From positions 2,250,001 through 2,282,000 of the forward strand of contig NC_006138.1 in the NCBI RefSeq assembly GCF_000025945.1: a DNA stretch of 32,000 bases, written 5' to 3'. The stretch is from Desulfotalea psychrophila LSv54 (GTDB lineage Bacteria; Desulfobacterota; Desulfobulbia; Desulfobulbales; Desulfocapsaceae). Shown here piece by piece: positions 3,582-31,520 of this stretch (its first letter is position 1; the number at the start of each line of letters is the position of its first letter). The notes under the pieces are model-generated. The model was not told where the DNA came from, searched no databases, and saw only the letters and a list, made by a program, of their open reading frames with translations. Position numbers and translations under genes: made by a program.

Positions 3582-3591
3582 GGTAATCCCC

Positions 3592-7904: not shown

Positions 7905-8155
7905 AAGAAGGTGTCCCCAGTCCCCTTCCCTTTTGCTGAGTTTTCCTTGAAAAAAACGTAAAAAAAAGATGTTAGCAGAGTTAAATTCTAATTGTGTCAA
8001 TGATATTTAAAAGTGTTATGCTTTTAAACTAATAATAAGTCAGGATTTACCCCTTCGGTATGCTTATTTCTTTCAGAGATTTTTTATCTGAAGAAGAGAA
8101 GGCTTCATAGACCTGGCATCAGCGTTTGAGTTATTTATCGACAGGTGAGCAAACA

Positions 8156-8812: not shown

Positions 8813-8857
8813 TATTTTTGCCTTGGAACTCCGGACAAGAAAACACCTACGAATAAA

Positions 8858-12517: not shown

Positions 12518-12593
12518 GCCAACATAGCTCAGTTGGTAGAGCGACGCTCTCGTAAAGCGTAGGCCAGCGGTTCGATCCCGCTTGTTGGCTCCA
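12518..12593 (+). tRNA. tRNA-Thr (anticodon CGU), CCA encoded
   Basis: Hand-folded cloverleaf. Acceptor GCCAACA/TGTTGGC, D arm GCTC-AGTTGGTA-GAGC, anticodon arm ACGCT-CTCGTAA-AGCGT (anticodon CGT), variable AGGCC, T arm AGCGG-TTCGATC-CCGCT, discriminator T, CCA. Total 76 nt. Confidence 0.9.
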
Positions 12594-12601
12594 AGAAATT
12601 C

Positions 12602-12645
12602 AAGGGTTTAGAGGATAATTTCTCTAAACCCTTTTTTGTTTTAAA
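12602..12645 (+). terminator. Rho-independent terminator after tRNA-Thr
   Basis: Perfect 12-bp stem AAGGGTTTAGAG (12602-12613) / CTCTAAACCCTT (12622-12633) with an 8-nt loop, followed by TTTTGTTTT. Confidence 0.8.
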
Positions 12646-12797: not shown

Positions 12798-15700
12798 CTA
12801 CTCATTAGACCGAGACCGTTCAAGCTTGGTTGCCCTCTGGGCTCTTTTCAAAACTAATCTAATCTGACGACCAGGATTTATCGGTCGAATGTCAACCCGA
12901 CCAATACCGTGGGCAAGTTCGTTGTATCGACTTATCTCTTTAAAAAGTTCTGCAGGAGTACCCTTTTGGTACAGGTAGATCTTTTTGATAAGGCTGTTTA
13001 TCTCAGTTCGTCGCTCTTGCATTCGTTTTGCTACTTTCTTTTCGTGCCACTGCTTTTCTCGGATTCCAGAAATGCGGGCAGGGTTAAAAGAAAAAAAGCG
13101 AACCGTCGCATCAAATCCATCGGCTTTTAAAGGTTCTGTACCATAGTAGACGGGACTGTAGGAGCCGGTTGTCACCCCTTCAGCCGCTTCACGAACAGCT
13201 TTTGACATAGAGCCAAAGGCAGTGGGCAACATAGCCTCTGCACCCTTTGAGAGTTCCCCTCTGCCAAGGTGTTTGATGCCTCGGGCTGTATCTGTAAAAA
13301 TAGCCCCGGGAGCGCCGAAGACTTCGGCAAGAGTTCTCGGCATAGGATTGTTTAACTGCAAAGAACCCTTAAGATTCACACCAGCAAGGCCTGCAAGTCC
13401 ATGGCGTAAGAATCTTTCACCACCAAAGGTTCTTTCGGCCCAGGTGTAGAACCTTTCTTCGGGATCATCTCCATCGGCAAACCCAAGGGCCCCGGCAAAG
13501 GCTGCAAGTACGGGAGTTGCAAGTGAAGCACCAGCTCCGGCAAGTACTGCAGGAGATAAAAGCATATACGCGGACTCTTTTATATTCCCTTTAAGACCTA
13601 AGTCTATCATATTAAGTGCATAATTATGAGAGAATTTCTGAAAAGTGTATAAAAGCTTTGCAGGATTGTAGGATCCTCTCGTCCAGGCAGGCATGGTTGC
13701 TTTACCGTAAATCCCATGAGCGCTATCACTTATACTCTTTGCCTTATGCATTGCCTCTTCTCGGGAGAGACTTGTCTGCTCTAATAATTTTTTGTAGGCA
13801 GCATAGATACTTACCGCCCGATTGGTTTTTTCCACAGCGCCAAAAAGTTTCATGGCATACTCGTTAAAAATTTGCCATCGTCGCCCTACTTTGGATTGCA
13901 ATACCGAGGCGTTTTCTTGATTAAACTGGGCTTCATCCCAGCCTCTTGCAGAGATATCTAAAAAGATTTGCCTCTCTTTATCGCTTAATAATCTCTTTTC
14001 CCCGGGCGCTTTTCTGCTATCTCGCAAATATTTACCATAGTCCACGGGCGCTCGGCGGATAACCGACAATGCTTTTGATAACCCGCAACCCGTTTCAGCA
14101 GAGATAATTGCAGGCACAGCCTGAACCATGTTTGTGGCGTTAACGGCGGCTGAACTCACCCTAAAGCCAAGAAACTTAATAACGGCAAGTCCCTTCAAGG
14201 TTCCCATGACTCGATCTACTTGCTCTTCGTTTCGCAGAACTTCCCTCATCCAGGAGATGGCCTCCCCATAAAGATTTTTCTGCCTGGTAGGATTCAAACG
14301 CCTTTTCTCCACAAATTTGCTATAGGCCTCCCAACTTTTATCAGCACTTCTTCCATTCTTGAATTCAGTAAAAGAGATATCGCGACCAGCGAGGGCCTCT
14401 ATCATTTTTCTGGCGGCATTTTTCTTGGCAAATCCTGCTGACAAGCCTCGAGCATATTGGGTACCAGCCAAAAGCATATCCTCTTCAAAACCTTTTACAT
14501 ATTTTGTTGAACGAGCGATACGGCTGGACAAATAACCTCGACCCTTGAAAATTTCTGCAAGATTCATACTGAGAAGTTTATTTATCTCTTGGGAGATTGC
14601 GGGAGTATCGTTGATACCGCCTTTGGTAACCGCCTCTTGAAGTAGAGCGTCAAGGGAAGAGACAAGTTGCATGGCATCAAAAACAGATTCTGGGGTGGAT
14701 TGATCTTTTTTTGCCTCAACGTGGTACCCGCGCTTTTTCAAATTCCGTCCATCTTTCTCCAACGTTTCGACGAAGGGAAGAAATCCTGTTGCAGTATTAA
14801 AAAGTTTTTTGATAAACCAGGAGGCGGATCGCCCCTGCTTAATTTCACCCGTTTCATTGTTGAGGGCATAGGAGTCCACTGCATAAAAATCATACTTCTT
14901 CATAATTGAGGGCTGTCCCTCTTTGGTTGCCCAAAGAATTACGCCACCAGACTGTCTCTGTCTTGGGAAATATGCTCCACGCAGATCACCCATTTCAGCA
15001 ATCAGCTCGGCTAGCGACATCTCTTTACGAATTTCATTATCCCTTTGTCTCTTGAGTTGGTGATGTCGAGTGCCGGCAGCTTGAGCTACCACTTTGTCGC
15101 CGAATTCGGCAACTCTCTTACCATTCTTATAGAGGGCCCAGCGACGTGACTCATCCACCAACGCTACCGTTGGTTCATCAAGGCCAGCCTCATTGGCTCG
15201 GGAAAGTATTTTTCTTAGATCTGCAACCATCCAATCAAAGGCGCGGTTGGTCATCTTGCGAAAGGAACTAATCAGTAATCGAGAATTTTCTGATAATTTC
15301 TGCACTCTTGGTGATTTCTGTTCAAATTCTATTATTGCGGCATTGGCACTTGCCTCCTCTGTAAAAACTTCCAAGAGAACGCCTTTAGGATCCATAACAT
15401 GAAATCGTTCGGATTTTTCCGTGTTATAATTAGGACGAACCTTGTCCTTATATTTACCACGAGCCTGCTGCTCTTTTAGATGTTTTGCGGAGAGTTCATA
15501 CGCCTGCAGCTGGGTATCAGTATACCCTAAAACCGTATCATCGGGAGTCTTCACTAGCCAGGCCATCTGTCTCTTCACCTTGAAAGAGTTACCACTTTGA
15601 TCAACATCGAGCAGATAGTTATTTGCCTGTTCATAGGTAGCGTTATCTTCTTTTTTCGCTTTTTGAAAGGTGGTGACAAAATCCTGTAGAATATCCTCTT

Positions 15701-18700
15701 CCATGGAAAATTTTTCATCCCGGCGTTCCAACTGAGCCATAAACATTCGGCTCGTCGCCCCTGACTTTTTAAAAAACTTCTCAGGAGCCGAAAGTATCTT
15801 TTCCATGAAGTTCATATCAGCAGGAGATGGCTTGTTCTTTATCTGATCAATCTTCTCGAGATAACCTTTGCCGGTCTCAGTCACGCTGTCATGGAAGTAT
15901 TTTTCACCAGGTTCCTGCTCTTTATCTATTTTGGCATGGGAATATCTGATGGCGTCATTATTGTTTTTCTTCTGATTAGTTCGCAATGCGGCCCCGGCCA
16001 TGGCTTTGAGGTCGGCAGCGGTTAATGAATTAACAAATTCAGCACCTAAAAATCTTATGAGAAGTGCTTTTACCCTGGCCAGGAAACGACGTACTAGGCC
16101 AATTTGCGCTGTATCTTCAACAAGATAGGCAATGACTTCCTCGGCATAATGTTCAAGCGGAGTATCCTTAGGTACCCTGTTTATCGCCTTGCGAATAGCT
16201 GCACCCGTTGGGGTGTTGCTGTTTTTACGTCGTAATACGGATCTCTTGAGGGTTTGAAACTCTTTGTCCGCAAGAAGGAGATGGTTAAGGTGCACCCCCA
16301 CCTCATGGTGCAGCACATCCTGTCCTTTACCTTGAGCAATGCTGTCAGCTACCAAGTATGTTTTGTTGGCAACGGTAAAGCCCTGGATAAAGCCATTTTG
16401 GGAATAGAAGATATCAATCTTTGTCTTTAGGGGGGTGGGATTCGTTCGAACAGAATAATACGGTTCACCTTGCAGACCGGCGATAATTTCTTGAGCTTCT
16501 TTTTGAGTGCTAAGAATAGAAAGGGTGCCGGTACGGATCATCCGGGAAATGGTGCTCCGGCCAACGGCTTTGTTGAGTTCTGCTTGAAGGGTAGCGGGGG
16601 TTAACCCACTATTTTGATATTCGGATTCCGCTCTTGTAGACGTTTTTTGGCGTAAATCGCTTTCTCCTTTAATAAGCGCATTTCTGAGGGATTCAACAGA
16701 ACCGTATTTGAGGACATAGTTGCCTTCTGAGTTGGTGAGGGCTTCGATGGTTCCTGAGATATCGAATTGTTGGAGGACGGTTTCGAGTTTTTCACGACCG
16801 AATTTCCTTATAAGTTGGTTAATGGTAGTTTCTTTTATCCCTACTATAGTGCCTCCTTGCACCGAAGCAAGGGAAGAGATGGCCACAACCTCACCACCGT
16901 TGTTCGCTATATAGTGCCGCAGTTCATGAATTGTACCTCCTTGGGTAAGCATATCATCCAGGATAATATATTTGCCACCCTTAACCACTGGCCCCTTAAA
17001 TAGCTTCCTGGCGAGGATACGGCTAGAACCTTTTAACCGCCTCCTTTTGGTCTTGCTTATCTGGTGAATAGAAAGTTGCGCTGAAAGCCCTGCCTTACCA
17101 AACTGATCCGCCATTGCGACGGGAATAAAGTTAACCCCCTCTTCCTCTAGTTCATGCACCGGCACCACTATGGCATCGGGATATTTTGCCGCCAACTCCT
17201 TAATTTTAGCCGGTTTCATTAGGCTCTCTACCAATCGAACCGCCGCGTCAAAATCACCAGCCTTGGCCGCCTTAAAATCGGGGTGACTTCGCAGGGTGCT
17301 CGGATTGGTATGAACCGTGGCTTTTTCAAGGGTTTGTGGCCACGGGGTAACACTTGACCTGGAATAGAGAAGGGTGCCCTTCTCAGTCTCTTTGCTCTTG
17401 AGAGTCTTAAAGAGATCGGTGAAGGCAGGGCCGACCGTCTTCAACTCATCTTCCTTCAGGTAGGGATAGGAATCAGGCTCCTTGCTGTCCCCCTCCCTGA
17501 TTGAGTTGGCCAGCTTTGCCAACAGATTTTCCATATAAACATCGGAGGTTACAATATTGGCCAGATAGTCATTGAGATAGCCCTTGGCTCTGTTCTGTTC
17601 GATGATATAGCTCTCAAAACTCCGGGCACTCATCTCTATCTCAGTACCCCAATATTTTTTCGTCCTCTTCTTATCCAGTTCAGCGGATCTTTCATAAAGC
17701 TTTGTCCCATTAATCTTTGCCATTAGATTATTGAAGGCGGCAACAACCTCCGTCCTGACCTTCTCGCCTCCATTGTTCTTCCCGGCAAAGACTTCGGCTG
17801 TCATATAGTACCCCCCCCTCTCAGCACCGGCATCCCTGGCCCCAAAATGGTTATCCAGGGCGTGCCACCACTCATGGGCCAAACTCCCGGCCCCGCTTTT
17901 TCGGGTCAGGTTAATAACAACCTTGCCGGGCTCATAGTGGGCCATAGCAGCATTTTTGCCGCCAGATCCCCGGGCACCAAAGGCCAGACTAAGTTCACCA
18001 TTAAGAGAGATCGCCCTGGGCGGGATACCAAGCAGGTTGGCCAAATCGTATAAACCATCAAAGGCATTGTTCAGGGCCATCTGTCTTTCACCGCTGGCCT
18101 TAACCCAATTGCCAAACTCCACTCCCTTGAAATTAAAGGCCTCCTGAAACATCTCTGGGCTAACATCCTTACCCTGCCGGTGATTCTCCCCTATCCGTTC
18201 CTCATTTGATTTACGGCGATGGTCAGGGGTATATTTACGAAGCTCCAACTCTTTAACCAACTCGTCGTAGTGTTCCTTTAAATATGTCCGGGCCTCGGCA
18301 GCATTGGGAAAACTCTTGAGGTCGAGATGTGACCCACCAACCTTCTTTCCAATCCAGATATTTTTCGGATCGGTTCGATAGTTATAGACGGTGAACTTAA
18401 CCTTTTTATCCACTGCCTTTTTCTCTCCCAAGGCTTTATAAACCGGCACAAAGTTGGCCAGTGCTTTTTCTTTTGTCTCACCGTCAGCAAGAGTCTTGAA
18501 ATTGGAATATACGTTGGCAGGGGCTTTTTGCTGAATCATCCACATATCAACGTTTTCCCGGCCCTTATAGAGACTCCAATGGATTTTGCTGAAGGTGATA
18601 CCCTTAAGAGATCTTTCATGGCCGTGAATCTCATAAAGCTCTGCCCGGCCAGCTATCTCCTGTGGCATGGCATCCCAAAAATCTTCTGTTATAAGCCCCT

Positions 18701-21700
18701 GGCCTGCCTCTGTTCTGAGAAGTTCAATCGCCAACTGGCGCAAAGACTCAACAGCCTTAACATACTCCTCCATCTTGTATTTCGAGCGACCGCCAGGTTT
18801 AGCAGGCACTTCATCACGGATAGACCGTACCGTGGCCACAATTTTAGGGCTGAACCCATCGGCCAGAAGCTTTTTATAATTGGGTGCGGGGAAGGCTTTG
18901 GAAAGAGGGACGGTGGCAGTATCAAGATGTTCTGCATCGGTCAGACTTCTTGTATAGAGATCTTTCTTGGCCCCGCCGATCTTCTCCCCAAAATCCTCTA
19001 TCTTCTCCTCTTTACCCTTCGGTGTGGATTTTGCAGCAGGCTTTGCAGACTCTTTTTTCTTGGCTTTTGCCTTTGCAGGGGATGTATCTTTACCTCCTTC
19101 AAGGGGAATAGGGTGCAAGCTGCCATCTCTGGCAGAAAGTTCCAGGCCTGATACCATAGAGGTTTTTCCCGAAAGAGAGATATCCCCCACATATTTTTCC
19201 CCTTCACCTTTTTGTAGATAGGCGATGGTTGCATGGGGCTGATAATCAGGAAAAGTTTCTCCTGGGAAAGAGGCCAGTTTACCCGCCTTCTCATTTGCAC
19301 CCACAAGACCGGCACTCTTTATCTCCACCTTCAATACATCGTATTTATCCGTTTCAAAAATAGAGACACGGCCAAGCTCAACGGAGAATGGCCCCAGGGT
19401 AGATAGCTCTTGCAACTCTTTTGTATCGTCGGCTTTAAGCCCATATCTTACCGTGATATGTGGGGCTGTCTCCCGCCCATAGCTAGGGTCTTTGGGATCT
19501 GTATAAAGCTCCTCCTCCGGGATTTTTTCACCGAAGGCAATAATATCCTTTGCTATAGGGCCGGGTAGAGAGGTCTGGATACTGGCGTAGCTGCTTTTAT
19601 GGGTCGGATCCTCCTTCTGTGGTTCCACCTGTGGAACCATTTCTGGGGTAGTAACCCGACCGGGAAACTCCTCTCGTTCATGTTTGGCCGGGTCGATGGT
19701 CGCCATTTCAGGCTTCTCTATAACTTGCTGGAATCCTTGTCGATCATACTTAATTGGATCAACCCTTGCCTGTTCAGGTTTCTCTACAGCCTGGGGAAAC
19801 TCTTTTCGCTCATGTGGGGCAGGTTTGACGTTTACCTTACCATTGGTCTTTACGGCCACTGCCGGGACGGTATCAAATTCATCAACTTCCAGAACCGAAC
19901 CCATGGCATTTCTGCCCTCGATAAGAAGTCTGTTTGTCTCGGGATCTCGGCCCCGGTGGACAAAAACTTCAGGGACACCATTTTGCATAGAGACAAATTG
20001 GTCGCCCTCCTTCAAATCACCGACAACAAGATCCCTTTCATCGGTAAGCTGAAACCCCTCCTGTTCTAACCTGTCAAACTGCACCGATTGAGCGACCATA
20101 GGATTTTTTGCATTGTATTCCTCGGCCACCGTCTTCAGGTATTCCCACCGTTCAAGCTGGGCATGGGTAAGGGGCTTGCCGCTACGAATCTTGCTCAAAA
20201 CCCTGTTAAATGTTTCCTGGCCCAATCTTACTTTTGTGCCATTTTTCTTATTGTACTCACCAACAATCTGCTGCTTAAACCATGGTGGGTAGGAAGATCC
20301 TGCTTCAACATCAGTACCGTCCTGAAGGCTCTTGTTTCTGCTAACATGCCCCCCTTTAACCTCCTGTTCCATCTCGTCAAGGGCGCGAAGATACTGTTGG
20401 TTTTCTATTTCTACCAGGGGATAATCGTTCCCCTCCCTCGTCGCTGAAATCATTTGAGGATTAGAAGCTCTCCCAGGAAAATCTTTCCGCTCCCATCCCT
20501 TCTCTCCACTAAAGGCCACCGCCATATCTACGGCCCTACGCGCATGCTGTTCGGGAGGGTTACGGGCCACACTCTTCTCAGGAGAAAGATGATTCTCTAA
20601 CTCAGCGGAGAAGGCAGCAATTGAATCCTGGCGAGGATGGGACGCAACACCCTCTGTCTGATAACGGGTATCCAGCCCAACGGCTCCCCGGTCAGAAAGA
20701 GAGGTGACATATTCCAATGCCCTCTGCTGTCTCCGGGTAAGACTCTGCCCATTTTTTACCTTACTGATAACAATATCCAGAAGAGGGCCGTTACCGGCAA
20801 GAGTACCGAGCTTTTTGCCGGTTTCCTGCTCATATTTTTTGATATTGTTTTTATCAAGGGCAGCAGAGCGCAGAGATTCAAGCTCCACACTGAATGGTTC
20901 GTTTGGCATCGGGAAGGCTACCTGCTCCCCGGGGGCCACCGGCTCTTTTTCCTCACCGGCAGCCAGGGTCTTACCAATCATGCCACTTGCCCCAATTTTT
21001 TCGGTTACCTCACCGGCGTAGCCGATTCCGGCAAACTTGGCATCAATATCAATGGGTAAACCCTGTGTTACCATCTCCTGGGCATGGTCAAGCCATGCAG
21101 CCGCCGCCGCCCGATCCTTCTCTTCCAGGGCGTTATAAATGGCATTAGCAGCCCCGGCCCTCTCAGCGGGGTCGGTCCCCGGATCTGCCAGGGCATCTTT
21201 TATCTTCTTATTTTGTCTGTCAGAATATTTTTCCGGGAGAACAGCATTAACCGAGCCAAACAGCCCACCACCTACCGCCCCTGCCGCCGCGCTGTTGATA
21301 TACTCCTTGATTGCCTCCTTATCAGTAAGCGAGACAGAGGGGTCATTATATTTTTCATTGAGTTTAGAGAGAAACGCCTGCAAAGTCTCCTGCACAGCTT
21401 CACCGGCCATCGACGCGGGGGTATGAGTAAGCAACCTGCCCTTAACCGTTTTCTGCAAACCGCCAAGAAAATTATCAGCAACTTCCCGGATCGCCTTACT
21501 ACCAGCACCCGTGGCCCCGGTAAGTCGTTTTAACAGAAATGCGCCGGGAGAAAGTAGTTCAGAGGCACCGGAGAGAAGACCGAAACCACCGGCTGAGAAG
21601 GGATTGGCCTTATCAATACCGTGTTTATTGGCCTCCTGGCCATACATTCCACCGCCCTCTAAAGCACCCATACCCATGGTCGTACCAAGGTTAAAACCAA

Positions 21701-22388
21701 TCTTCTTACCACGGGCGATAATGGCCTTTTCCGCCGCCTCCTCTGCAACCTCCCTAACCACCCCATTTTTTACCTGGGCCTCAATCGCCTCACGGATAAT
21801 TTTTTTACCAAGGGCAGGGGCAATTGCAGCACCGGCACCAACACCAGTGAGAGTACCGGCGATTGCCGTGGCCATGGTAGGAAAAAGTCTGCCCAATTGA
21901 CCTGTCACATAATCAAAGGTATCTTCTGCCACCCCGTGATTCTTGCCGATATCAAGAAAATTCTCGGTATCAAGAGGGTTTTCCGCAGCCTCTTCTTCAT
22001 TACGCTGAAACCCTTCATAGCCCCAATTACGAACATCTTTTAAAAATCCATCATTCCCGCCATTAAAAGTTTTGTTGATCGCGTCGGCAGCTAAAGCCGT
22101 GGCACCATAAATAGACCCCTGGGTTTGATCTACCCCCGACAGAAGACCACGCTCGAGGTTTGACCCTTCGGGAGCCTGTTGCTCAAGGGGAAGTTGTTCA
22201 ACAAGTTCAGGTTCCGGGGGAGCTTCCCAATCAGGATCATTAAACGAAAATTTCTCTGCTCTTTCCGGAGAGAGAAGGGTATTAACCTGCTCTTTTTTCC
22301 GGGCTTGCAACTCTTCTGCGCTAGGAACATTAAAATCAAGCTCTGCTTCAAGTAAATCTTCTGGGAATCCGATATTATTATCTGCCAT
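12798..22388 (-). CDS. Giant polyvalent protein (3196 aa): 2H phosphoesterase + zincin + PRTase + second zincin + hydrophobic C-terminal region; probable virion-packaged/injected protein
   Basis: A single uninterrupted 9.6-kb ORF. AAGGA lies 8 nt upstream of the ATG at 22388. Domain motifs are listed as separate features. The KIEDFGEKIGGAKKD linker motif and the multi-enzyme architecture match what I recall of polyvalent proteins of phages/ICEs. Confidence 0.85.
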   Translation of the reverse strand: MADNNIGFPEDLLEAELDFNVPSAEELQARKKEQVNTLLSPERAEKFSFNDPDWEAPPEPELVEQLPLEQQAPEGSNLERGLLSGVDQTQGSIYGATALAADAINKTFNGGNDGFLKDVRNWGYEGFQRNEEEAAENPLDTENFLDIGKNHGVAEDTFDYVTGQLGRLFPTMATAIAGTLTGVGAGAAIAPALGKKIIREAIEAQVKNGVVREVAEEAAEKAIIARGKKIGFNLGTTMGMGALEGGGMYGQEANKHGIDKANPFSAGGFGLLSGASELLSPGAFLLKRLTGATGAGSKAIREVADNFLGGLQKTVKGRLLTHTPASMAGEAVQETLQAFLSKLNEKYNDPSVSLTDKEAIKEYINSAAAGAVGGGLFGSVNAVLPEKYSDRQNKKIKDALADPGTDPAERAGAANAIYNALEEKDRAAAAAWLDHAQEMVTQGLPIDIDAKFAGIGYAGEVTEKIGASGMIGKTLAAGEEKEPVAPGEQVAFPMPNEPFSVELESLRSAALDKNNIKKYEQETGKKLGTLAGNGPLLDIVISKVKNGQSLTRRQQRALEYVTSLSDRGAVGLDTRYQTEGVASHPRQDSIAAFSAELENHLSPEKSVARNPPEQHARRAVDMAVAFSGEKGWERKDFPGRASNPQMISATREGNDYPLVEIENQQYLRALDEMEQEVKGGHVSRNKSLQDGTDVEAGSSYPPWFKQQIVGEYNKKNGTKVRLGQETFNRVLSKIRSGKPLTHAQLERWEYLKTVAEEYNAKNPMVAQSVQFDRLEQEGFQLTDERDLVVGDLKEGDQFVSMQNGVPEVFVHRGRDPETNRLLIEGRNAMGSVLEVDEFDTVPAVAVKTNGKVNVKPAPHERKEFPQAVEKPEQARVDPIKYDRQGFQQVIEKPEMATIDPAKHEREEFPGRVTTPEMVPQVEPQKEDPTHKSSYASIQTSLPGPIAKDIIAFGEKIPEEELYTDPKDPSYGRETAPHITVRYGLKADDTKELQELSTLGPFSVELGRVSIFETDKYDVLKVEIKSAGLVGANEKAGKLASFPGETFPDYQPHATIAYLQKGEGEKYVGDISLSGKTSMVSGLELSARDGSLHPIPLEGGKDTSPAKAKAKKKESAKPAAKSTPKGKEEKIEDFGEKIGGAKKDLYTRSLTDAEHLDTATVPLSKAFPAPNYKKLLADGFSPKIVATVRSIRDEVPAKPGGRSKYKMEEYVKAVESLRQLAIELLRTEAGQGLITEDFWDAMPQEIAGRAELYEIHGHERSLKGITFSKIHWSLYKGRENVDMWMIQQKAPANVYSNFKTLADGETKEKALANFVPVYKALGEKKAVDKKVKFTVYNYRTDPKNIWIGKKVGGSHLDLKSFPNAAEARTYLKEHYDELVKELELRKYTPDHRRKSNEERIGENHRQGKDVSPEMFQEAFNFKGVEFGNWVKASGERQMALNNAFDGLYDLANLLGIPPRAISLNGELSLAFGARGSGGKNAAMAHYEPGKVVINLTRKSGAGSLAHEWWHALDNHFGARDAGAERGGYYMTAEVFAGKNNGGEKVRTEVVAAFNNLMAKINGTKLYERSAELDKKRTKKYWGTEIEMSARSFESYIIEQNRAKGYLNDYLANIVTSDVYMENLLAKLANSIREGDSKEPDSYPYLKEDELKTVGPAFTDLFKTLKSKETEKGTLLYSRSSVTPWPQTLEKATVHTNPSTLRSHPDFKAAKAGDFDAAVRLVESLMKPAKIKELAAKYPDAIVVPVHELEEEGVNFIPVAMADQFGKAGLSAQLSIHQISKTKRRRLKGSSRILARKLFKGPVVKGGKYIILDDMLTQGGTIHELRHYIANNGGEVVAISSLASVQGGTIVGIKETTINQLIRKFGREKLETVLQQFDISGTIEALTNSEGNYVLKYGSVESLRNALIKGESDLRQKTSTRAESEYQNSGLTPATLQAELNKAVGRSTISRMIRTGTLSILSTQKEAQEIIAGLQGEPYYSVRTNPTPLKTKIDIFYSQNGFIQGFTVANKTYLVADSIAQGKGQDVLHHEVGVHLNHLLLADKEFQTLKRSVLRRKNSNTPTGAAIRKAINRVPKDTPLEHYAEEVIAYLVEDTAQIGLVRRFLARVKALLIRFLGAEFVNSLTAADLKAMAGAALRTNQKKNNNDAIRYSHAKIDKEQEPGEKYFHDSVTETGKGYLEKIDQIKNKPSPADMNFMEKILSAPEKFFKKSGATSRMFMAQLERRDEKFSMEEDILQDFVTTFQKAKKEDNATYEQANNYLLDVDQSGNSFKVKRQMAWLVKTPDDTVLGYTDTQLQAYELSAKHLKEQQARGKYKDKVRPNYNTEKSERFHVMDPKGVLLEVFTEEASANAAIIEFEQKSPRVQKLSENSRLLISSFRKMTNRAFDWMVADLRKILSRANEAGLDEPTVALVDESRRWALYKNGKRVAEFGDKVVAQAAGTRHHQLKRQRDNEIRKEMSLAELIAEMGDLRGAYFPRQRQSGGVILWATKEGQPSIMKKYDFYAVDSYALNNETGEIKQGRSASWFIKKLFNTATGFLPFVETLEKDGRNLKKRGYHVEAKKDQSTPESVFDAMQLVSSLDALLQEAVTKGGINDTPAISQEINKLLSMNLAEIFKGRGYLSSRIARSTKYVKGFEEDMLLAGTQYARGLSAGFAKKNAARKMIEALAGRDISFTEFKNGRSADKSWEAYSKFVEKRRLNPTRQKNLYGEAISWMREVLRNEEQVDRVMGTLKGLAVIKFLGFRVSSAAVNATNMVQAVPAIISAETGCGLSKALSVIRRAPVDYGKYLRDSRKAPGEKRLLSDKERQIFLDISARGWDEAQFNQENASVLQSKVGRRWQIFNEYAMKLFGAVEKTNRAVSIYAAYKKLLEQTSLSREEAMHKAKSISDSAHGIYGKATMPAWTRGSYNPAKLLYTFQKFSHNYALNMIDLGLKGNIKESAYMLLSPAVLAGAGASLATPVLAAFAGALGFADGDDPEERFYTWAERTFGGERFLRHGLAGLAGVNLKGSLQLNNPMPRTLAEVFGAPGAIFTDTARGIKHLGRGELSKGAEAMLPTAFGSMSKAVREAAEGVTTGSYSPVYYGTEPLKADGFDATVRFFSFNPARISGIREKQWHEKKVAKRMQERRTEINSLIKKIYLYQKGTPAELFKEISRYNELAHGIGRVDIRPINPGRQIRLVLKRAQRATKLERSRSNE
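16060..16436 (-). other. Zincin-like module 2 of the giant protein (HEVGVH)
   Basis: DVLHHEVGVHLNHLL (HExxH at aa 2028-2032, first His codon at 16307-16305) with downstream EHYAEEVIAYLVED. Only the motif is seen. The fold is not verified. Confidence 0.45.
16780..17290 (-). other. Type-I phosphoribosyltransferase (ComF-like) module of the giant protein
   Basis: PRPP-binding loop signature GGKYIILDDMLTQGGTIHEL (Asp1811-Asp1812, nt 16958-16953), preceded by RRLKGSSRILARKLFKGPV as in ComF/GntX-type PRTases. Confidence 0.7.
17604..18125 (-). other. Zincin-like metallopeptidase module 1 of the giant protein (HEWWH)
   Basis: GVEFGNWV...LAFGARGSGGKNAAMAHYEPGKVVINLTRKSGAGSLAHEWWHALDNH (HExxH at aa 1505-1509, nt 17876-17862), with a downstream acidic helix TEIEMSARSFESYI as a possible third ligand. 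Confidence 0.65.
19100..19570 (-). other. 2H phosphoesterase (LigT/cyclic-nucleotide phosphodiesterase-like) domain of the giant protein
   Basis: Two HxT motifs lie 75 aa apart: APHITVRYGL (His977, codon at 19460-19458) and QPHATIAYL (His1052, codon at 19235-19233). Confidence 0.75.
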
Positions 22389-22566: not shown

Positions 22567-23844
22567 CTATTTCTGTGGTCGCTTCAACCCTGCTATCGGA
22601 ATTTCTTCTGCCATACCGTTTTTTACTCCGATAAGACGCTCTCCCGGCTGTCCATTTGCATCTGTATACTCCTGCATCGTAATTTTTTCATAATTTGCAG
22701 AGTTATCAGTACCTAAAAGAAAACTGAGCTTTTTCTGAATTGCTTTCTTTTTGCCCGCATTTTTCTCTTCAAGAAATTGTTTTTGCAGAAGCATCGCAGT
22801 AGATAACTGCTCATTTGATAAACCTCTTGAAGTAGCTAAAGCATCGTTGGCAGCAAAAGAACCCTGTGCGGTAAGGGCCCTTGTTCTGTTCAGGCCAACC
22901 CCATTTTGCCGATTGACTAGATTTGTTCGCATATTGTTCTCAGATAAAGTTTGATTTGTTCTCATATTATTCTTGCCAGTAACCCCGGTAGTCCTCACGT
23001 TATTACGCTCTGCACTAGCCAAGCTTTCCCGATTGGCCTTGTTCTGGTACAAAAGACCGTTGAGCATTTGTCGCTCTTTCCATGGCATATTAGGATGAGT
23101 TTTACGGGTAAAAAGTTTTTCCTTCTCTTTTTGGTTCCTCTTCAACCATGAATAATTGGGAGTAATAATTTTTCCGGGGGATTGTGCTCTCTGTCTCTGC
23201 GCGGGAGCATAACCCGTTGGTCGCATAAACCTTGCCACGGTAGGGCTCATCTCGCTCCTGTTGTGCATGGTAGCTTGTCCATAGCCACCATCTTGCTGGT
23301 TAATAGTAAAAGTACGCTCTCCCTGCGCATTAACTCCACGTTGGATACTTGGCTGTCCCTCTCCTCTGCCCACTACCCCGGCAGGATTGGAGGGATTGGC
23401 GAGGTTAGCGTTCGCGGCAAGGGTCGCCTCTTGGTTCGCAGTAGTCGATGGGCCTAACTCAGCTGGTCGCTGGTTCACTACCCCGGCCACGCCTTGAGGC
23501 AATTGACCAAAATTCCGTAACCGTTGCTGCGGAGCCACCGTTGCCATGCTTGAAGGGAGAGGTGTTTGTACCCCCATCTCGTTAGCAATGCCCCTGCCCT
23601 TACTATTTATCCGGTTGAGGTTAATGTCATAGCTTTCCGCACCACGGCTATAGGCTTTGCTTATCCCGTCAACCCCCGACTGTAACGCAGTACCCCCGGT
23701 AGACATTACCGCTGGATCTATAATATCTTTCTTGATAGCACCACCCATTCGACGCGCCCCGTTGACAATACGGGCCTCGGCCCCTGTCTGCATAGCGTTT
23801 AAAGGCCGTTTTTTTCGAACATCTTCAATCGTTGCTAGAGCCAT
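22567..23844 (-). CDS. Hypothetical phage protein, Asn/Gln/Gly/Arg-rich low-complexity (possible internal virion/ejection protein)
   Basis: The start was moved to ATG 23844 (MALATIEDV), with AGGAGG 7 nt upstream. The composition is low-complexity, with repeated NN[VM]RT motifs. No enzymatic motif was recognised. Confidence 0.6.
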   Translation of the reverse strand: MALATIEDVRKKRPLNAMQTGAEARIVNGARRMGGAIKKDIIDPAVMSTGGTALQSGVDGISKAYSRGAESYDINLNRINSKGRGIANEMGVQTPLPSSMATVAPQQRLRNFGQLPQGVAGVVNQRPAELGPSTTANQEATLAANANLANPSNPAGVVGRGEGQPSIQRGVNAQGERTFTINQQDGGYGQATMHNRSEMSPTVARFMRPTGYAPAQRQRAQSPGKIITPNYSWLKRNQKEKEKLFTRKTHPNMPWKERQMLNGLLYQNKANRESLASAERNNVRTTGVTGKNNMRTNQTLSENNMRTNLVNRQNGVGLNRTRALTAQGSFAANDALATSRGLSNEQLSTAMLLQKQFLEEKNAGKKKAIQKKLSFLLGTDNSANYEKITMQEYTDANGQPGERLIGVKNGMAEEIPIAGLKRPQK

Positions 23845-23878
23845 TGTGCCCCTCCTTATTGTTTCATAATTACGCAAT

Positions 23879-25438
23879 TTACGTTGGTGACTGATTAAAT
23901 TTTGAATTATATGCACCAATGCTTATATCAGAAACATGCTTGCCAGGATAAAGCGCAGGTATCTCTGTTTCTATAATAGCAAGCAATTTTGCTTGAAATC
24001 CTGGCACATCGTTGTGCGAAATCAAATCTTCACAAGCTGAACGAGTAGCTAAAAATTCATATGGATAAACCAAACCGCCAGTAGGAGAGACATTCAGCCA
24101 CACCTTGTCAGGATCTCTTATATACCTGTTCGATATACGAGCCTCTACCTGTAGATCGCCCCTTATAATTGTAACTTCTGACGTTTTAGTTTGTTCATCT
24201 TTTGTAATAAATTCCGTGTAGCTACTCGGTGCCCAAATAATTTTACAGATAAAACCAACACCCACCGCCAATGCACCAGAAACATAAGAATCAGGTACTT
24301 CAGTCCTGATATAATAACCAATATCATCATTATATTCAGTATAGTGAGGAATCCCATTATCAAGATTGGTTTTCTCAAAGGTGGTTTCGTAACGAGAAGA
24401 AAAAGACCTTTCTGACATATAGCTATTAACGCTTATTGTTCTAATCGTCTTTGTAGTCCAACGAGTATAATCATCGCTGTACCAACCATCTCGCGTTGTT
24501 ATTAGTGTATTCCCGGGCACAACCGTTAAAACATCGGCTGGCGCGTTGTTATATGTCACAACACTATCTTTTGTAACAGTGTAATCAAGTCGTGAATATT
24601 CAAAATGCCAATGATCCCGTGGAAACCAAATACAATCACCCGCTGGAATAAATTTGTTTTGATTTAAGGTTGTTATAGAAGAATTGTAGGCATAACCGGC
24701 AGGGTCAATTGAAACACTTGTTCCAGAGAAGATCACACGCTCCTGAAGACTATCAGTACCATAATTATTATCTAATTCTATCTGTTTAGAGAATAACCTT
24801 TTGTTAGAACCAGCTATATAATAGTCTTCCCATACAATTTCATCTACAGAGAGAAACATATCATTTGTAGGGTCGTAATAATAATTAACCCTAATAGGGA
24901 AGTTGTCTTTTTGGCTCAGATCAAATATGATTATAAAAATCTCAATCGCAGGTTTTAAGCATGTCTTCGTTTTTATGGGTAACGTTTCCTCTTGGTCTGT
25001 ACCGGGAGATACCACATAATAAAAGCTACTAATTCCATCGTCATAATAAACACATTGAGCGTAAACCTTATCTTCAAAAGCCATCTTTCCTGTCTCGTTA
25101 AGCAACTCAAGACGGTTAAGATATCTTTGCCCTTCCCCTGTCTTTGTTTGAAGCCACAACACAAAAAATTCACAATGATAAAGAACAGGCATCTGTTGAA
25201 GGTTAACACCCACCATCTGTTCTACAGTTAAACCAAACTGCTCCAAAGCCCTTATGGTGCCACTCTTCTCCGGGTCAGAACTTCTGTCTACCAGAACAGT
25301 AAAAAGGGTGAGCTTGTTCACATCAAAGCTTTCCGGAGCAACGGTAAATCCTTGATCTTCGGCAAGTTCAGGATCAAGAATAGAAAAATATGTATTGGTA
25401 TCTATTATCATCTGCAAGGCCTGTTTTTGAAAACCCAT
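23879..25438 (-). CDS. Hypothetical phage protein, Tyr/Asn/Thr/Asp-rich, AT-rich gene (tail fibre/receptor-binding candidate)
   Basis: 519-aa ORF. An alternative start at ATG 25411 forms an ATGA overlap with the upstream stop. The composition is beta-rich and no motif was recognised. Confidence 0.55.
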   Translation of the reverse strand: MGFQKQALQMIIDTNTYFSILDPELAEDQGFTVAPESFDVNKLTLFTVLVDRSSDPEKSGTIRALEQFGLTVEQMVGVNLQQMPVLYHCEFFVLWLQTKTGEGQRYLNRLELLNETGKMAFEDKVYAQCVYYDDGISSFYYVVSPGTDQEETLPIKTKTCLKPAIEIFIIIFDLSQKDNFPIRVNYYYDPTNDMFLSVDEIVWEDYYIAGSNKRLFSKQIELDNNYGTDSLQERVIFSGTSVSIDPAGYAYNSSITTLNQNKFIPAGDCIWFPRDHWHFEYSRLDYTVTKDSVVTYNNAPADVLTVVPGNTLITTRDGWYSDDYTRWTTKTIRTISVNSYMSERSFSSRYETTFEKTNLDNGIPHYTEYNDDIGYYIRTEVPDSYVSGALAVGVGFICKIIWAPSSYTEFITKDEQTKTSEVTIIRGDLQVEARISNRYIRDPDKVWLNVSPTGGLVYPYEFLATRSACEDLISHNDVPGFQAKLLAIIETEIPALYPGKHVSDISIGAYNSKFNQSPT

Positions 25439-26109
25439 TCAGGAATTTTTTCAAATAAGGGAAGCACCTTATACAGAGGTGCTATTCTCGAAGACATATA
25501 GTCCTTATCCCGCTTAGGCTTATCGGCACTATCGGGCGCAGCCACGGGCTCGGTGCCCATCTGTTCCGGGTCAAAGCCAAAAAGAAGAACCAACCCACAT
25601 TTTATATATCCAGGGTTTTCCTCCGATCCCGCCCCCGCCTCTTCATCTGAAATTATATTAATAAAATCCGTAATCATACATTTTTCGTAGGAAACATATT
25701 TATATCCGACACAAGGGACGCTGCTTTTATTGCAGACTTCCAAGTTATAGCGCACGTTATCCCCCTCGTAACCCATCGGGGTGTCCAGGGAATAATCGTA
25801 TTTTGAAACAATGCGACATACAGCAAAATTGACATTGGCAAAACATTCATCGCAGAGACATGGTTTACCTCCCCCCACGCCTTTCATTGGCACCCATATA
25901 TCCGCATAGGACAGCCCATATCTGATATAAGTACGGATATGAGTCCCGTCAGCAAAATGAAAATTACGTTCTCCCGTGGGAAGTTTCTGGAAAGACATGC
26001 TGGTGTTGAGCATATCCAACTGCCTCCGGGCAAAACCCATAAGTGATTTTCCCGCAGCAATATTACCGCTAACTTGAAACCGCGTTGGAATGGGAGGTAG
26101 ATAAAACAC
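25408..26109 (-). CDS. Hypothetical phage protein (Cys-rich, 233 aa)
   Basis: GTG start 2 nt after the upstream stop. Cys cluster KPCLCDECFANVNFAVC...VCNKSSVPC...EKC. Coding is supported by operon packing only. Confidence 0.5.
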   Translation of the reverse strand: MFYLPPIPTRFQVSGNIAAGKSLMGFARRQLDMLNTSMSFQKLPTGERNFHFADGTHIRTYIRYGLSYADIWVPMKGVGGGKPCLCDECFANVNFAVCRIVSKYDYSLDTPMGYEGDNVRYNLEVCNKSSVPCVGYKYVSYEKCMITDFINIISDEEAGAGSEENPGYIKCGLVLLFGFDPEQMGTEPVAAPDSADKPKRDKDYMSSRIAPLYKVLPLFEKIPEWVFKNRPCR

Positions 26110-26111
26110 GA

Positions 26112-27467
26112 TTAAGTCACCGGTTCTTCGTAAGAATGGGATTCACTCAGACTTCCACCATAGCTCCATGTTTCACCTTTACGCTCAGAACCCTGATATC
26201 CATGAGAGATAGAGGTGTTCACCGCGCCAAGGGCAGAGGCCAGAGATTGAGCTGAAACACTGGCAACAGCCTCACCAATCCTCTCTGCTAAAGACTCTTT
26301 ATTCATATAGGCCTGTAGATTAATTTTTTCATTCTCAATGGCCTGAGTTACTTTCAGTTTAGAAGCCTCTAACCCCATTTTGGCCTCTTCAATAAGCATT
26401 TGATACTGTTTTGATACTGCATCAATCTCAGCAGTATAAATAGTTATTTCTGATTGGCGAACATCAACGAGCCCCCTGTTCTTGCTAGTGATAGACTCAA
26501 TTTTAGATTTGTAAACTTCGGCCTGTCCTAAATATATCCTTACAAGACCATCGTTATATTCGGTAATTCCCTTGATCTTAGAGACAAGTGCCTCCAAACT
26601 AATTTTTATCCCCTCCCACTGAGCCAGATATAATTTTACATTCTGCTCATAGGCTCGGAGAAGGTAGTCCGTTGTCGCTTTCTGGATCTCGACATTGCGT
26701 CCCTCCCTGTTTTCAAAAGCTTCTCGTAAAAGCTGTTCAAGCTGTGTTCCCGTAGTGATTGCAAACTTCTTATAATCAAAAGCCATCTCAAAATCTTTAA
26801 TGGTGATGGTGTTGAGCGCATCTTGATCGCGTTTCATTATCTCGGCAGAGAAATTAATTTGCATAGCAGCAACTTGCCCGGAGGGGAGTTCAAAACCCCT
26901 ACTTCCCACTGCGTCCAGGGTTTTTCTGTACTCCCTGTCTTGGCTTAATCTTCTGCTCTCCTGCTCACGTTGAACCATGGCAAGATGGGTAGCATCGGAA
27001 AGGCCTGGCCCCTCCTCTAAAATAGCCGCATGTACCTTAGAAAAAAGAGCTTGCCACATTTCTGAGGTATATTCATGCTGGGTATAATCAAAACTTACAT
27101 CCACCTTGCTGGGAGGAACAGGAGCAATAAAAGAAAAATCTATATCACCCAATTCTTCAAAAACTGGTGGGTCGCCTATGTCAGCAGGAAAGCTATCGTC
27201 CAAAACCAAAGCCGGAAAATTTGGCATGGGGGGATATTCAGGGGCATCTATGCCGGGAATATTCACATTCACAATACTGGTTGCCGGGTCATATTCTCCT
27301 AATGCAGTTTCCAAATTGAGCAGAGCCGTATCCACCTTTGTCTTCATTGCATCAGCATAGGCGGTGGTACTGTCTATAATGTCGGTGATCTCTGTATACA
27401 TGCTTGTCGGGTTCACACTAGCCGCAGGCAGATTTATTTTCTCCGCCCCTGAAATTGCAAGAGTCAT
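26112..27467 (-). CDS. Hypothetical phage protein with long coiled-coil-like C-terminal half (451 aa)
   Basis: ATG with GGAGA 9 nt upstream, starting 2 nt after the upstream stop. The C-terminal half has heptad-like, Glu/Lys/Ala/Ile-rich sequence. Confidence 0.6.
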   Translation of the reverse strand: MTLAISGAEKINLPAASVNPTSMYTEITDIIDSTTAYADAMKTKVDTALLNLETALGEYDPATSIVNVNIPGIDAPEYPPMPNFPALVLDDSFPADIGDPPVFEELGDIDFSFIAPVPPSKVDVSFDYTQHEYTSEMWQALFSKVHAAILEEGPGLSDATHLAMVQREQESRRLSQDREYRKTLDAVGSRGFELPSGQVAAMQINFSAEIMKRDQDALNTITIKDFEMAFDYKKFAITTGTQLEQLLREAFENREGRNVEIQKATTDYLLRAYEQNVKLYLAQWEGIKISLEALVSKIKGITEYNDGLVRIYLGQAEVYKSKIESITSKNRGLVDVRQSEITIYTAEIDAVSKQYQMLIEEAKMGLEASKLKVTQAIENEKINLQAYMNKESLAERIGEAVASVSAQSLASALGAVNTSISHGYQGSERKGETWSYGGSLSESHSYEEPVT

Positions 27468-27469
27468 AG

Positions 27470-28702
27470 CTATTGTCTCCTTCTGCTAAACTTTGATATC
27501 ATTATACTTAAATCAATTTGCTCTATCTCGAAACACGCACAAGAAACAACTTTTAGAGTCATATATCTACCTACAAGACCTTTGCCTACCTTGACACGAA
27601 CCTCACACATTCCCTCATTTTTCACCTCAAAAGGATAACTATGCCATTGTCCATTTCTATCTGCCATAACCAACAATTCATAATCACCGATACCCTGTAA
27701 TCTCAGATATGCGCTGTTTATAGATTTCTGGTTTTTGTTTCCAAAATCGGTTGTTGCAAAAGCAAAACATTTTTCCTTGCCTGATTTTATGGATTTTTCC
27801 AAATTATACAGTCCGTCAAAACCGGCAATATATGTCTGGTCAGCAACGGCAAGTATACTGCGAGTCTGTAATGAGTTCTCGCTAACAGCCTTACTCCCCA
27901 CCTCACCAACAGCTCCTTGAACATGCATACCACCTTCCGCTCCACCAAGAATAATCTCGGTCTTTCCACGGACGGTTAGTGAGTTGTACTCTTTTTTAAG
28001 CTCATATCTTTTATTGGTAAGATTAAAAACAGAACCACTTGGAAGCCCTAGAAACACTCCTTCAGGAGTAGCAAACAGCAACGACATTTGAGATGTTTCA
28101 AAACCAAAAAGCATAGGGTCTACAAGGTGAGAGCTATTTGCCCATTCAAAAGCAGGGAAATTAAGAATTTTTCGATGGCTCCATGTATCCGGATTTGTAC
28201 CGCCCACGAAATAAACGGCTGTCTCATCTGAAACAAAAAAACCTTCGCCTACAGAGCGAACCATCCGCACCCTAGAACCATAGCGAAGACGATTTTTTAC
28301 CATATCGACCACACCGGGAAGACCATGTTCAGAGAAGATAACTTCTTGCCCTACAGCAAAAAGAATACGCCCTGCAATACTATCTATATGAGTTGCAATA
28401 GGCGCAGGGTAAAAGCTAGATTTAGCATCTGGCCCAGGCCAAGTTTGGGATACCCAAGGGGAACTGGTAAAGACTATTTCTGCAGGAATCTCAGCACGGG
28501 CCACAGAAAAAGACTCGAAAATTAAAATACAATCGGACACGCCTTTAATTACTACAGGAGTATCTACTTTCACCGCACAGTTAAAGCCAAGGCCTATGGT
28601 GGCCTCTGCTAGTGCATGGGTGACAGCTGGCAACACCCGTACCTCTGTGTTAAAACTGAGGCCAAACATTGTAGCAGATTTTATATACTGACTATTTGCC
28701 AT
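27470..28702 (-). CDS. Hypothetical phage structural protein (410 aa)
   Basis: ATG with AAGGG about 10 nt upstream. Beta-rich sequence with no motif recognised. Confidence 0.6.
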   Translation of the reverse strand: MANSQYIKSATMFGLSFNTEVRVLPAVTHALAEATIGLGFNCAVKVDTPVVIKGVSDCILIFESFSVARAEIPAEIVFTSSPWVSQTWPGPDAKSSFYPAPIATHIDSIAGRILFAVGQEVIFSEHGLPGVVDMVKNRLRYGSRVRMVRSVGEGFFVSDETAVYFVGGTNPDTWSHRKILNFPAFEWANSSHLVDPMLFGFETSQMSLLFATPEGVFLGLPSGSVFNLTNKRYELKKEYNSLTVRGKTEIILGGAEGGMHVQGAVGEVGSKAVSENSLQTRSILAVADQTYIAGFDGLYNLEKSIKSGKEKCFAFATTDFGNKNQKSINSAYLRLQGIGDYELLVMADRNGQWHSYPFEVKNEGMCEVRVKVGKGLVGRYMTLKVVSCACFEIEQIDLSIMISKFSRRRQ

Positions 28703-28740
28703 TTTATGTGCCCTTAACGTAAGGCCTACAGCCTGTTTTG

Positions 28741-30573: not shown

Positions 30574-30632
30574 GATATTTACCTTTTAAAATTATCGTAA
30601 AACATATTAATCTATCCCTAACCCCTCGCTAC

Positions 30633-31082
30633 CTATGCTGGTGGATTATTGACATTCAGAGTCACGATAATACTCTGGCCCATATCAACAGTTACATTTT
30701 CAAGCAACAGATCGGCATCGGCCACACCGACAGAACCATCCCATCGAACAGCAACATCGGACGCATCGGTGATTTCGTCTTTATCGTAAAAACGGAACCA
30801 AGTTGCCTCACCCGTAGCAACCCAAGTGCCCTTCCATTCTTCTCCTTCGGCAGGGCTAATTACGCCATCTACCGGAGAACCAAAATTGAGACCATTTGTC
30901 ACCTCCCCAGGAGTATGCGCCAAACCATCTACTGTGATAATTCCGAGCAGCGTTCCCGCCTCTGCATCATCTGCTGAGGCAGGTTGCGTTCCGCTGTAGA
31001 TATGAAGAACGCCACCGGCAAACCGAGCGGCAAAGGCAATAAGCTCAGCCAAGATCATTCCTTTTGCTTTTTTCACACTCAT
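30633..31082 (-). CDS. Hypothetical small phage protein (149 aa), paralogue of the C-terminal domain of the 610-aa protein
   Basis: ATG with GAGGG about 10 nt upstream. GGVLHIY...DAEAGTLLGIITVDGLAH...NGL...WKGTW...WFRFYD. Confidence 0.65.
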   Translation of the reverse strand: MSVKKAKGMILAELIAFAARFAGGVLHIYSGTQPASADDAEAGTLLGIITVDGLAHTPGEVTNGLNFGSPVDGVISPAEGEEWKGTWVATGEATWFRFYDKDEITDASDVAVRWDGSVGVADADLLLENVTVDMGQSIIVTLNVNNPPA

Positions 31083-31100
31083 TATATAATCCCTCTGTTG

Positions 31101-31502
31101 TTACTGGCCTTCATTAAGGGCCAAAATCCCGTTTTCAAAACCGTTACAGTAGAAAACGTTGCTCCCCAGGAGCGTATAGGAAATTCGTGCGCCTTGTGTT
31201 AAAGCAGAACGAATACCCTGTTTAGTTATCCCGTTAGCATTTGTTTGTATGAAAAATAAAGCCGTATCTGCTTCTCTATCTTCTGCAATAAAAAAATTAT
31301 CCCCCAAGGGAAACATCGAATGATAAGCACCCTCAGCCAACTTCTTTACATCTAGGGCAGAAACAATAGCCCCGGTATGGTCTATCTCAATATCACGGCA
31401 ATCTTCTAGTGTTGATTGCCCTTTCGCAATGACTAATCTTGCCGGATCATCGACGTTATTCAGGCCTAAACAATTATTGTATAAAACGATATCATGGGCC
31501 AT
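31101..31502 (-). CDS. Hypothetical phage protein (133 aa)
   Basis: ATG with GGGGAAAG upstream, 18 nt after the upstream stop. No motif recognised. Confidence 0.5.
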   Translation of the reverse strand: MAHDIVLYNNCLGLNNVDDPARLVIAKGQSTLEDCRDIEIDHTGAIVSALDVKKLAEGAYHSMFPLGDNFFIAEDREADTALFFIQTNANGITKQGIRSALTQGARISYTLLGSNVFYCNGFENGILALNEGQ

Positions 31503-31520
31503 ATTCTTTCCCCATAACGA

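Follow-up and report, generated by a model that had tools for sequence, protein, structure and literature searches.

The gene DP1991 of Desulfotalea psychrophila LSv54 encodes a giant phage-type polyvalent protein and lies in a 32,000-nucleotide (nt) stretch of the chromosome (NC_006138.1, positions 2,250,001 to 2,282,000), referred to here as the window. Its open reading frame (ORF) occupies 12798..22388 on the minus strand, runs from an ATG start through 3196 amino acids (aa) and a stop codon without interruption, and takes up 30% of the window, as an initial annotation made from the sequence alone had described. An AAGGA ribosome-binding site is found 8 nt 5' of the ATG. The same annotation had named an assembly artefact, the fusion of several genes, as a way in which its reading could fail. 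This is ruled out because the exact protein (CAG36720.1, WP_011189232.1, UniProt Q6ALQ5) is known from the finished 3.52-Mb chromosome of the LSv54 isolate and many independent assemblies contain co-linear giants with matching end modules.

Phage-type polyvalent proteins were described by Iyer et al. 2017 (PMC5512222). DP1991 has features by which they are recognised, combining several unrelated enzyme domains, LPD signatures among them, with a place among late (virion) genes. It is a member of that class and is already annotated as such, under the names 'LPD5 domain-containing protein' in RefSeq and 'Large polyvalent protein-associated domain-containing protein' in UniProt. The polyvalent reading proposed initially is upheld by LPD5 and LPD1 matches far over the Pfam cut-offs, by these names and by the position of the gene, which closes a virion cluster. 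The initial annotation could not place the combination of a 2H phosphoesterase, a phosphoribosyltransferase (PRTase) and two zincins; every one of these domains belongs to the known vocabulary of the class, since 2H, ComFC-like PRTase, HEXXH+D zincin and HEXXXH zincin domains have each been reported from proteins of this class (Iyer et al. 2017, PMC5512222), and near-identical architectures exist. What is new here is the assignment of most of the unexplained DP1991 sequence to conserved N- and C-terminal modules flanking exchangeable cargo.

Enzyme modules of DP1991

The four enzyme modules predicted in the initial annotation hold up at both the motif and the profile level, the 2H and PRTase-like domains with Pfam scores under the cut-offs. 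The centre of the protein is a block (aa 1116-1666; 17391..19043, like all its parts on the minus strand) recognised by phrog_616, Pfam and NCBIfam, in which a pre-LPD5 region, LPD5, a first zincin and LPD1 follow one another. The phrog_616 profile spans aa ~1116-1690 as one conserved block (E=2e-98), while Pfam LPD5 covers aa 1279-1417 (146.9 bits, E=7e-43) and Pfam LPD1 aa 1571-1666 (57.5 bits, E=1e-15), both against a cut-off of 27 bits, which also applies to the 2_5_RNA_ligase2 and Acb1 models; for Pribosyltran the cut-off is 26.3 bits. Parts of the giants of Shiga toxin (Stx) phages and of phages Dartukuta and Y3 are 36-45% identical to this block. Zincin 1, between LPD5 and LPD1, carries HEWWHALD at aa 1505 and, downstream, a Glu-bearing helix E-M-S-A-R-S-F-E (E-M-x-A-R-x-F-E). 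The NCBIfam CLCA_X zincin model aligns with aa 1398-1605 at E=1e-42, but under its full-length cut-off. The H/E/H residues and an Asp three positions after the second His are invariant in a four-sequence alignment, and the block agrees with the zincin clade of Iyer et al. 2017 (PMC5512222). With its HEXXH, Asp(+3) and Glu-helix, zincin 1 belongs to the zincin-like metallopeptidases (MPTases) of phage polyvalent proteins.

Upstream of this block lies the 2H phosphoesterase domain (aa ~940-1110; 19059..19571), whose two HxT[VI] motifs, HITV at aa 977 and HATI at aa 1052, stand ~75 residues apart. It matches phrog_755 and scores 25.3 bits (E=2e-5) with Pfam 2_5_RNA_ligase2, just below the cut-off. 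By tblastn (E=1e-10 to 2e-21) it shares 32-38% identity with genes of the 2'-5' RNA ligase family from Maribacter phages and from huge uncultured phages. Its top PDB sequence match is the Acb1 structure 7T26 (E=0.21), in an alignment across the second motif. The Pfam Acb1 model (PF23474) gives 15.5 bits (E=0.014), below its 27 bits, so that the domain is not an Acb1 member by score, and tblastn with the domain matched no annotated Acb1 gene even at E<=1. By its motifs and matches it probably belongs to the 2H superfamily and is not a demonstrable Acb1. The linker just before it contains three tandem 22-aa repeats (aa 859-925; 19614..19814) of the form H/Y-E/D-R-x-x-F-P/Q ... P-E, with a fourth copy at aa 633. 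A role of their ER(K/E)(D/E)FP motif as a family-wide protease cleavage site was considered and rejected, since the motif is essentially unique to DP1991, occurring four times there and once in 386,000 residues of relatives.

The type I PRTase-like domain (aa 1684-1912; 16653..17339) follows the central block. Its phosphoribosyl pyrophosphate (PRPP) loop, DDMLTQGGT, is located at aa 1811, as is the motif IILDDMLTQGGT, and residues D1811, D1812, G1817, G1818, T1819, R1782 and R1790 are kept in eight relatives. The region, initially read as a ComF-like PRTase, matches phrog_22413 (E=5e-40), while Pfam Pribosyltran reaches 19.4 bits against its 26.3-bit cut-off and all NCBIfam matches also fall under theirs. 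Comparison with APRT structures gave E=0.017. A PADLOC search returned weak ShosT (PRTase) matches only, and a literature search found no experimental function for a polyvalent-type PRTase.

Zincin 2 (aa 1985-2135; 15984..16436) carries HEVGVH at aa 2028 together with E2083/E2084. It had been listed simply as a second zincin; the motif is there and its residues are conserved, but it is an HEXXXH variant rather than the classical HEXXH. H2028, E2029, H2033, E2083 and E2084 are conserved at a level of at least 85% across 23 relatives, and the domain is 40% identical to its counterpart in the metagenomic relative L001 (which has HELGVH) and 28% identical to that in gp51 of Stx phage P27. The HEXXXH and downstream Glu, kept in relatives, are those of HEXXXH-variant MPTases, to which zincin 2 is assigned on this pattern. 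As far as sequence can tell, all four enzyme modules retain intact, family-conserved catalytic motifs.

Conserved ends and exchangeable cargo

The roughly 2000 aa that the initial annotation had found motif-less, in a protein it pictured as modules on long linkers, consist largely of modules conserved in the family, placed at the two ends, and not of linkers. The N-terminal module, M1 (aa ~60-420; 21129..22211), is all-alpha, with long helices and conserved Gly, Glu and Gln residues, and no Pfam model matches it. A second conserved module, M2 (aa ~640-870; 19779..20471), recurs at ~residue 450-670 in 25 of the relatives with 2000 aa or more. The C-terminal module (aa 2187-3196; 12801..15830) comprises ~1000 aa and ends in a PLxRFG domain. 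A hydropathy scan located the Gly/Ala-rich hydrophobic segments that had been noticed near both termini: one lies in M1 at aa 172-193 (21810..21875), with conserved Gly columns, and the other in the C-terminal module at aa 2943-2970 (13479-13562).

When aa 1-930 were used in an exhaustive HMMER search, 286 relatives came up at E<=1e-3, and most of the best-scoring 150 of these 286 are giants of 2000-5400 aa. Of 91 relatives with 2000 aa or more, 77 have M1 at the N-terminus (median start at residue 48). Among M1-bearing giants, 27 end in a PLxRFG-type module and 32 in an Stx/LPD38-type module, and none has both. Relatives of the C-terminal module were gathered by an alignment-based search; searches by word index gave 2 matches with the C-terminus and 4 with the M1 alignment. 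The module always ends within 47 residues of the protein C-terminus. It closes ORFs of ~1,300 to >4,300 aa in 29 IMG/VR viral contigs, all but one of them >2,400 aa, and is also present in metagenome-assembled genomes of Desulfobulbaceae and Desulfurivibrionaceae; its relatives carry other N-terminal domains.

The PLxRFG assignment comes from NCBIfam NF032893, PLxRFG 'tail-700', which aligns through profile positions 115-670 with aa 2629-3187 at 107.8 bits, against a curated cut-off of 100. Judging from the USP_25 sequence, the name-giving motif probably lies in the N-terminal part of the profile, which is not aligned, and YFPRQRQSGG in DP1991 is likely its equivalent, by eye. A literature search found no experimental function for the PLxRFG domain. 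A profile comparison of the PLxRFG-type and Stx-type C-termini (hhalign probability 79%, E=1.5e-5, 139 columns, with the core just before the hydrophobic segment) hints at a shared core.

Structure prediction gave models of moderate confidence for both ends. AlphaFold2 renders M1 as a bundle of long helices (pLDDT 65, pTM 0.58) and reaches pLDDT 65 and pTM 0.45 for the C-terminal module. Foldseek found no significant match to either model in the PDB, and PDB profile searches with the M1, C-terminal and central-block alignments found nothing. Against BFVD, the C-terminal model matched the C-terminal parts of other giants of phages (E down to 2e-16), for many of which the annotation is polyvalent, and also entries named 'Internal virion protein D' from the Roseobacter phages CRP-4 and CRP-5 (E ~1e-3, TM 0.15-0.21), with TM-scores of 0.15-0.27 over all these matches. 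M1 and the C-terminal module are conserved but uncharacterised.

Sequence comparison of the relatives of 2000-5400 aa establishes that the end modules stay terminal and that the enzymes between them differ. In 13 giants, the cargo between constant ends includes ART, InPase, a DarB-like methylase-helicase, ddrB-ParB, PBECR, MuF_C, RadC, GGDEF and LPD3. Three architectures come near that of DP1991: one has M2, the central block, the PRTase and the C-terminal module (P0039), a second has M1, M2, the PRTase, an HEXXXH zincin and the C-terminal module (P0043), and a third, from IMG/VR, has M2, the 2H domain, an HEXXXH zincin and the C-terminal module (L023). The exact module order of DP1991 was not seen elsewhere among the relatives compared, which is what a shuffling family leads one to expect.

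Some relatives depart from the single-gene form. In the metagenomic L001 (3037-9178), two overlapping ORFs of 897 and 1159 aa lie beside a host aconitase gene and a HigB-like toxin gene, with the order of zincin and PRTase reversed relative to DP1991; this relative may be frameshifted or a remnant. In contigs L007/L008 (2935-15355), M1 has a gene of its own (806 aa), behind which lie genes of 1208 aa and >1965 aa, an arrangement that looks like a split version of the giant.

Prophage setting and proposed function

DP1991 is the last gene of the late (virion) operon at the edge of a podovirus-like prophage, because virion genes lie upstream of it and a tRNA and host genes downstream. The initial annotation had likewise put it at the end of a virion module. 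The upstream virion genes (22567..31931, minus strand) run in the same operon direction, and their reading frames are intact. They include an SU10-type adaptor (31521-31931, minus strand; Pfam PF24175, E=3e-10), two phrog_3758 virion-structural-domain proteins, a head-closure-like protein and a phrog_10969 match. A 451-aa structural protein (26112-27467, minus strand) is common to phages that carry giants: a structural protein related to it is encoded by Pseudomonas USP_25-like phages, by Bacillus phage Dartukuta and by Pseudoalteromonas phage Y3, and in all of these the giant gene lies a few genes downstream of the homologue, in the same module. The same order of the 451-aa structural gene and the giant is seen in IMG/VR contig L022.

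Directly past the DP1991 stop codon, tRNA-Thr(CGU) (12518-12593, plus strand) is the probable prophage boundary, with a bidirectional hairpin (12602-12633) next to it. The host genes beyond it, to the left, encode RlpA, a PIF1-type helicase, multihaem cytochromes and an ABC transporter. One prophage end only lies in the window, and no integrase is found there on the tRNA side. Several predicted prophages have been reported in D. psychrophila LSv54. An exact-match search of genome and metagenome contigs with a 42-nt pattern gave no match, and likewise no contig was on record for DP1991 or for a neighbouring protein.

Other features of the window deserve mention. The two ORFs just upstream of DP1991 (22567-25438, minus strand), of 450 aa (Gln/Asn-rich) and 519 aa, have no family match and are candidates for further ejection or tail proteins. 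The phrog_3758 domain is duplicated in the module, as a 149-aa ORF and as the C-terminus of a 610-aa ORF (28741-31082, minus strand). Beside the prophage, a low-GC (0.36) cassette of two genes, of 228 and 944 aa (8126-11692, plus strand), is without relatives in Pfam, PADLOC or the PDB; its 944-aa product shares 34-36% identity with genes of Acinetobacter and Helicobacter plasmids, and the pair may be a mobile or defence cassette. The 820-aa PIF1-type helicase (5442-7904, plus strand) has HRDC and HTH_40 domains and matches the PADLOC candidate-defence models PDC-S68 and PDC-M16A and the DpdF C-terminus. The two large multihaem cytochrome-like ORFs (1926-5094, minus strand), recognised by eye from CxxCH motifs, are host genes unrelated to DP1991.

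Taken together, the modules and the setting suggest that DP1991 is probably a giant encapsidated and ejected polyvalent carrier of counter-defence enzymes of a podovirus-like prophage. A few copies would be packed in the capsid through the end modules. The protein would exit via the tail, before the DNA or together with it, as a loosely folded chain of beads on a string, for which the virion RNA polymerase (vRNAP) of phage N4 is a precedent, and the hydrophobic end modules would aid crossing or bridging of the envelope. The zincins might then cut the chain into separate enzymes. The 2H domain could destroy 2'-5' or cyclic oligonucleotide immune signals or process RNA ends with 2',3'-cyclic phosphates, and the PRTase could act on the nucleotide or PRPP pool, or handle incoming DNA in the manner of ComFC. 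As a result, enzymes would be present at DNA entry, ahead of any phage gene expression. Autoproteolysis by MPTase domains and signal degradation by the 2H domain have been predicted in the literature (PMC5512222), and it is family knowledge that suggests autoprocessing, hydrolysis of signals or RNA ends, and nucleotide or DNA handling for the domains of DP1991. The strongest outside evidence for encapsidation and ejection is the virion proteomics of phi24B gp47, an Stx-phage giant with LPD5, LPD1, LPD38 and MuF_C domains, which is abundant in purified virions, is unseen in the ordered density of cryo-electron microscopy and has been proposed to be an encapsidated ejection protein.

Several findings weigh against this proposal. 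The Pfam scores of the 2H and PRTase-like domains fall short of their cut-offs, and neither the Acb1 model nor tblastn ties the 2H domain to Acb1. The models of the two ends are of moderate confidence, and searches of the PDB by fold and by profile found no relative of either. The prophage may be cryptic; only one of its ends lies in the window, and that end has no integrase. For the metallopeptidase, the phi24B authors prefer a part in cutting peptidoglycan or in a conduit over autoprocessing. The Stx giant lacks M1 and its C-terminus is only marginally related to that of DP1991, at the hhalign probability given above; carrying the virion evidence over to DP1991 therefore depends chiefly on the cargo block and the gene position that the two have in common.

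A structural role for DP1991 is a serious rival. The protein may be mainly an ejectosome part that builds or extends a trans-envelope conduit, with zincins that cut peptidoglycan and other enzyme domains that are secondary or inactive. This is possible, if somewhat unlikely as the chief role. Such a function has already been proposed for its homologue phi24B gp47, and it would suit the hydrophobic Gly/Ala segments in both conserved end modules and the bundle of long helices modelled for M1. In some relatives the end modules have genes of their own, as ejection proteins do in other podoviruses. The BFVD matches to 'Internal virion protein D' of the two Roseobacter phages point the same way, but the TM-scores of these matches are low, and there is no match to the solved ejection proteins of T7, P22 or N4. 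The catalytic motifs of the 2H domain, the PRTase and both zincins are intact and conserved, which speaks against inactive passengers, and cargo that varies freely between constant ends fits swappable effectors better. The two roles are nevertheless compatible: in a carrier of counter-defence enzymes, forming a conduit may be exactly what the end modules do.

The remaining alternatives take DP1991 out of use or out of phage biology. The gene could have fallen out of expression and use in a cryptic or defective prophage, as a relic that is intact because it was acquired recently, given that only half of the prophage is visible, that no integrase adjoins the tRNA end and that LSv54 has several predicted prophages. 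This is quite unlikely, however, for a 9.6-kb frame without a stop, with a good ribosome-binding site and conserved catalytic and family residues, downstream of virion genes that are intact as well. It is highly improbable that DP1991 belongs, as a polyvalent protein, to a conjugative element or acts as a secreted polymorphic toxin. Polyvalent proteins do occur on conjugative elements and zincin domains in toxins (PMC5512222), but the neighbours here are virion genes, with no type IV secretion system or relaxase genes among them, and relatives are found in isolated phages and IMG/VR viral contigs. The conjugative-element reading was rejected on the virion-gene neighbourhood.

A more ambitious idea extends the carrier proposal, and is doubtful at present: the helical Gly/Ala N-terminal module and the C-terminal module, of PLxRFG or Stx/LPD38 type, might together form a self-translocating podovirus delivery scaffold with cassette-swapped counter-defence enzymes, here an injected 2H nuclease directed against cyclic or 2'-5' signals.

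Comparison with known giant virion proteins

Polyvalent proteins are common and very large, and almost none has been tested for packing, capsid exit or the roles of its enzymes. DP1991 alone adds little, being already annotated and in a host that is hard to work with. What is gained is a map in which conserved N- and C-terminal modules of unknown fold surround an exchangeable enzyme cassette. Tractable relatives for the study of packaging signals and injected anti-signalling enzymes are found among Stx phages, Pseudomonas USP_25/F116-like phages and Klebsiella Lastavirus.

The giants of Stx phages (Sepvirinae), phi24B gp47 (2811 aa) and P27 gp51 (2867 aa), which have the same Pfam domain set, share with DP1991 the block of pre-LPD5, LPD5, zincin and LPD1 at 36% identity over ~560 aa (E ~1e-80). 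An HEXXXH zincin, the giant size and, in the C-terminal module, a Gly-rich hydrophobic segment are further features in common, and the P27 giant, like DP1991, is the last late gene and adjoins the prophage end. In P27 an integrase follows the giant, whereas the DP1991 prophage has none on that side. Unlike DP1991, the Stx giant carries MuF_C and LPD38 and a different N-terminus, and it is without the 2H domain, PRTase, M1, M2 or a recognisable PLxRFG domain.

The PLxRFG giants of temperate podoviruses, namely gp31 of Pseudomonas phage vB_PaeM_USP_25 (4899 aa) and the 495-kDa protein of Lastavirus, resemble DP1991 in their C-terminal PLxRFG. In USP_25, too, the giant gene ends the virion module, and the structural-protein gene a few genes upstream is shared. 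The cargo of USP_25 gp31 differs, consisting of a helicase, LPD23 and ART; no M1 was detected in it, and its identity to DP1991 is 27% over ~290 aa only.

Coliphage N4 vRNAP, gp50 (~3500 aa), is a functional analogue, a giant with a beads-on-a-string form and a zincin-like MPTase that is both encapsidated and ejected. This 383-kDa protein leaves through a ~35 A channel, its N- and C-terminal regions serve ejection and encapsidation, and it was the seed of the polyvalent-protein concept. DP1991 is not an N4-like vRNAP, as no RNA polymerase domain was found in it with Pfam, NCBIfam or the PDB and no part of it matches gp50 by sequence or fold. Nor does it belong with the internal virion protein D of T7 gp16 type, to which no PDB match was found by sequence or fold. 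Phage P1 is a myovirus, and its DarB and DdrB proteins differ from DP1991 in their methylase-helicase or ParB cargo and in their packaging partners, with no homology detected beyond the zincin theme. They are nonetheless capsid-packed multi-domain counter-defence proteins delivered with the DNA, and the C-terminal zincin of DdrB is thought to autoprocess (PMC5512222).

Finally, the 2H domain of DP1991 resembles the Acb1/LigT-type 2H phosphodiesterases, which likewise have two HxT motifs ~75 residues apart. Acb1 is a free early protein, whereas the DP1991 domain is embedded in a giant virion protein. To our knowledge, Acb1-type enzymes are made only after infection starts. If the idea of a self-translocating delivery scaffold is true, the 2H domain of DP1991 would be their injected counterpart, acting at DNA entry.

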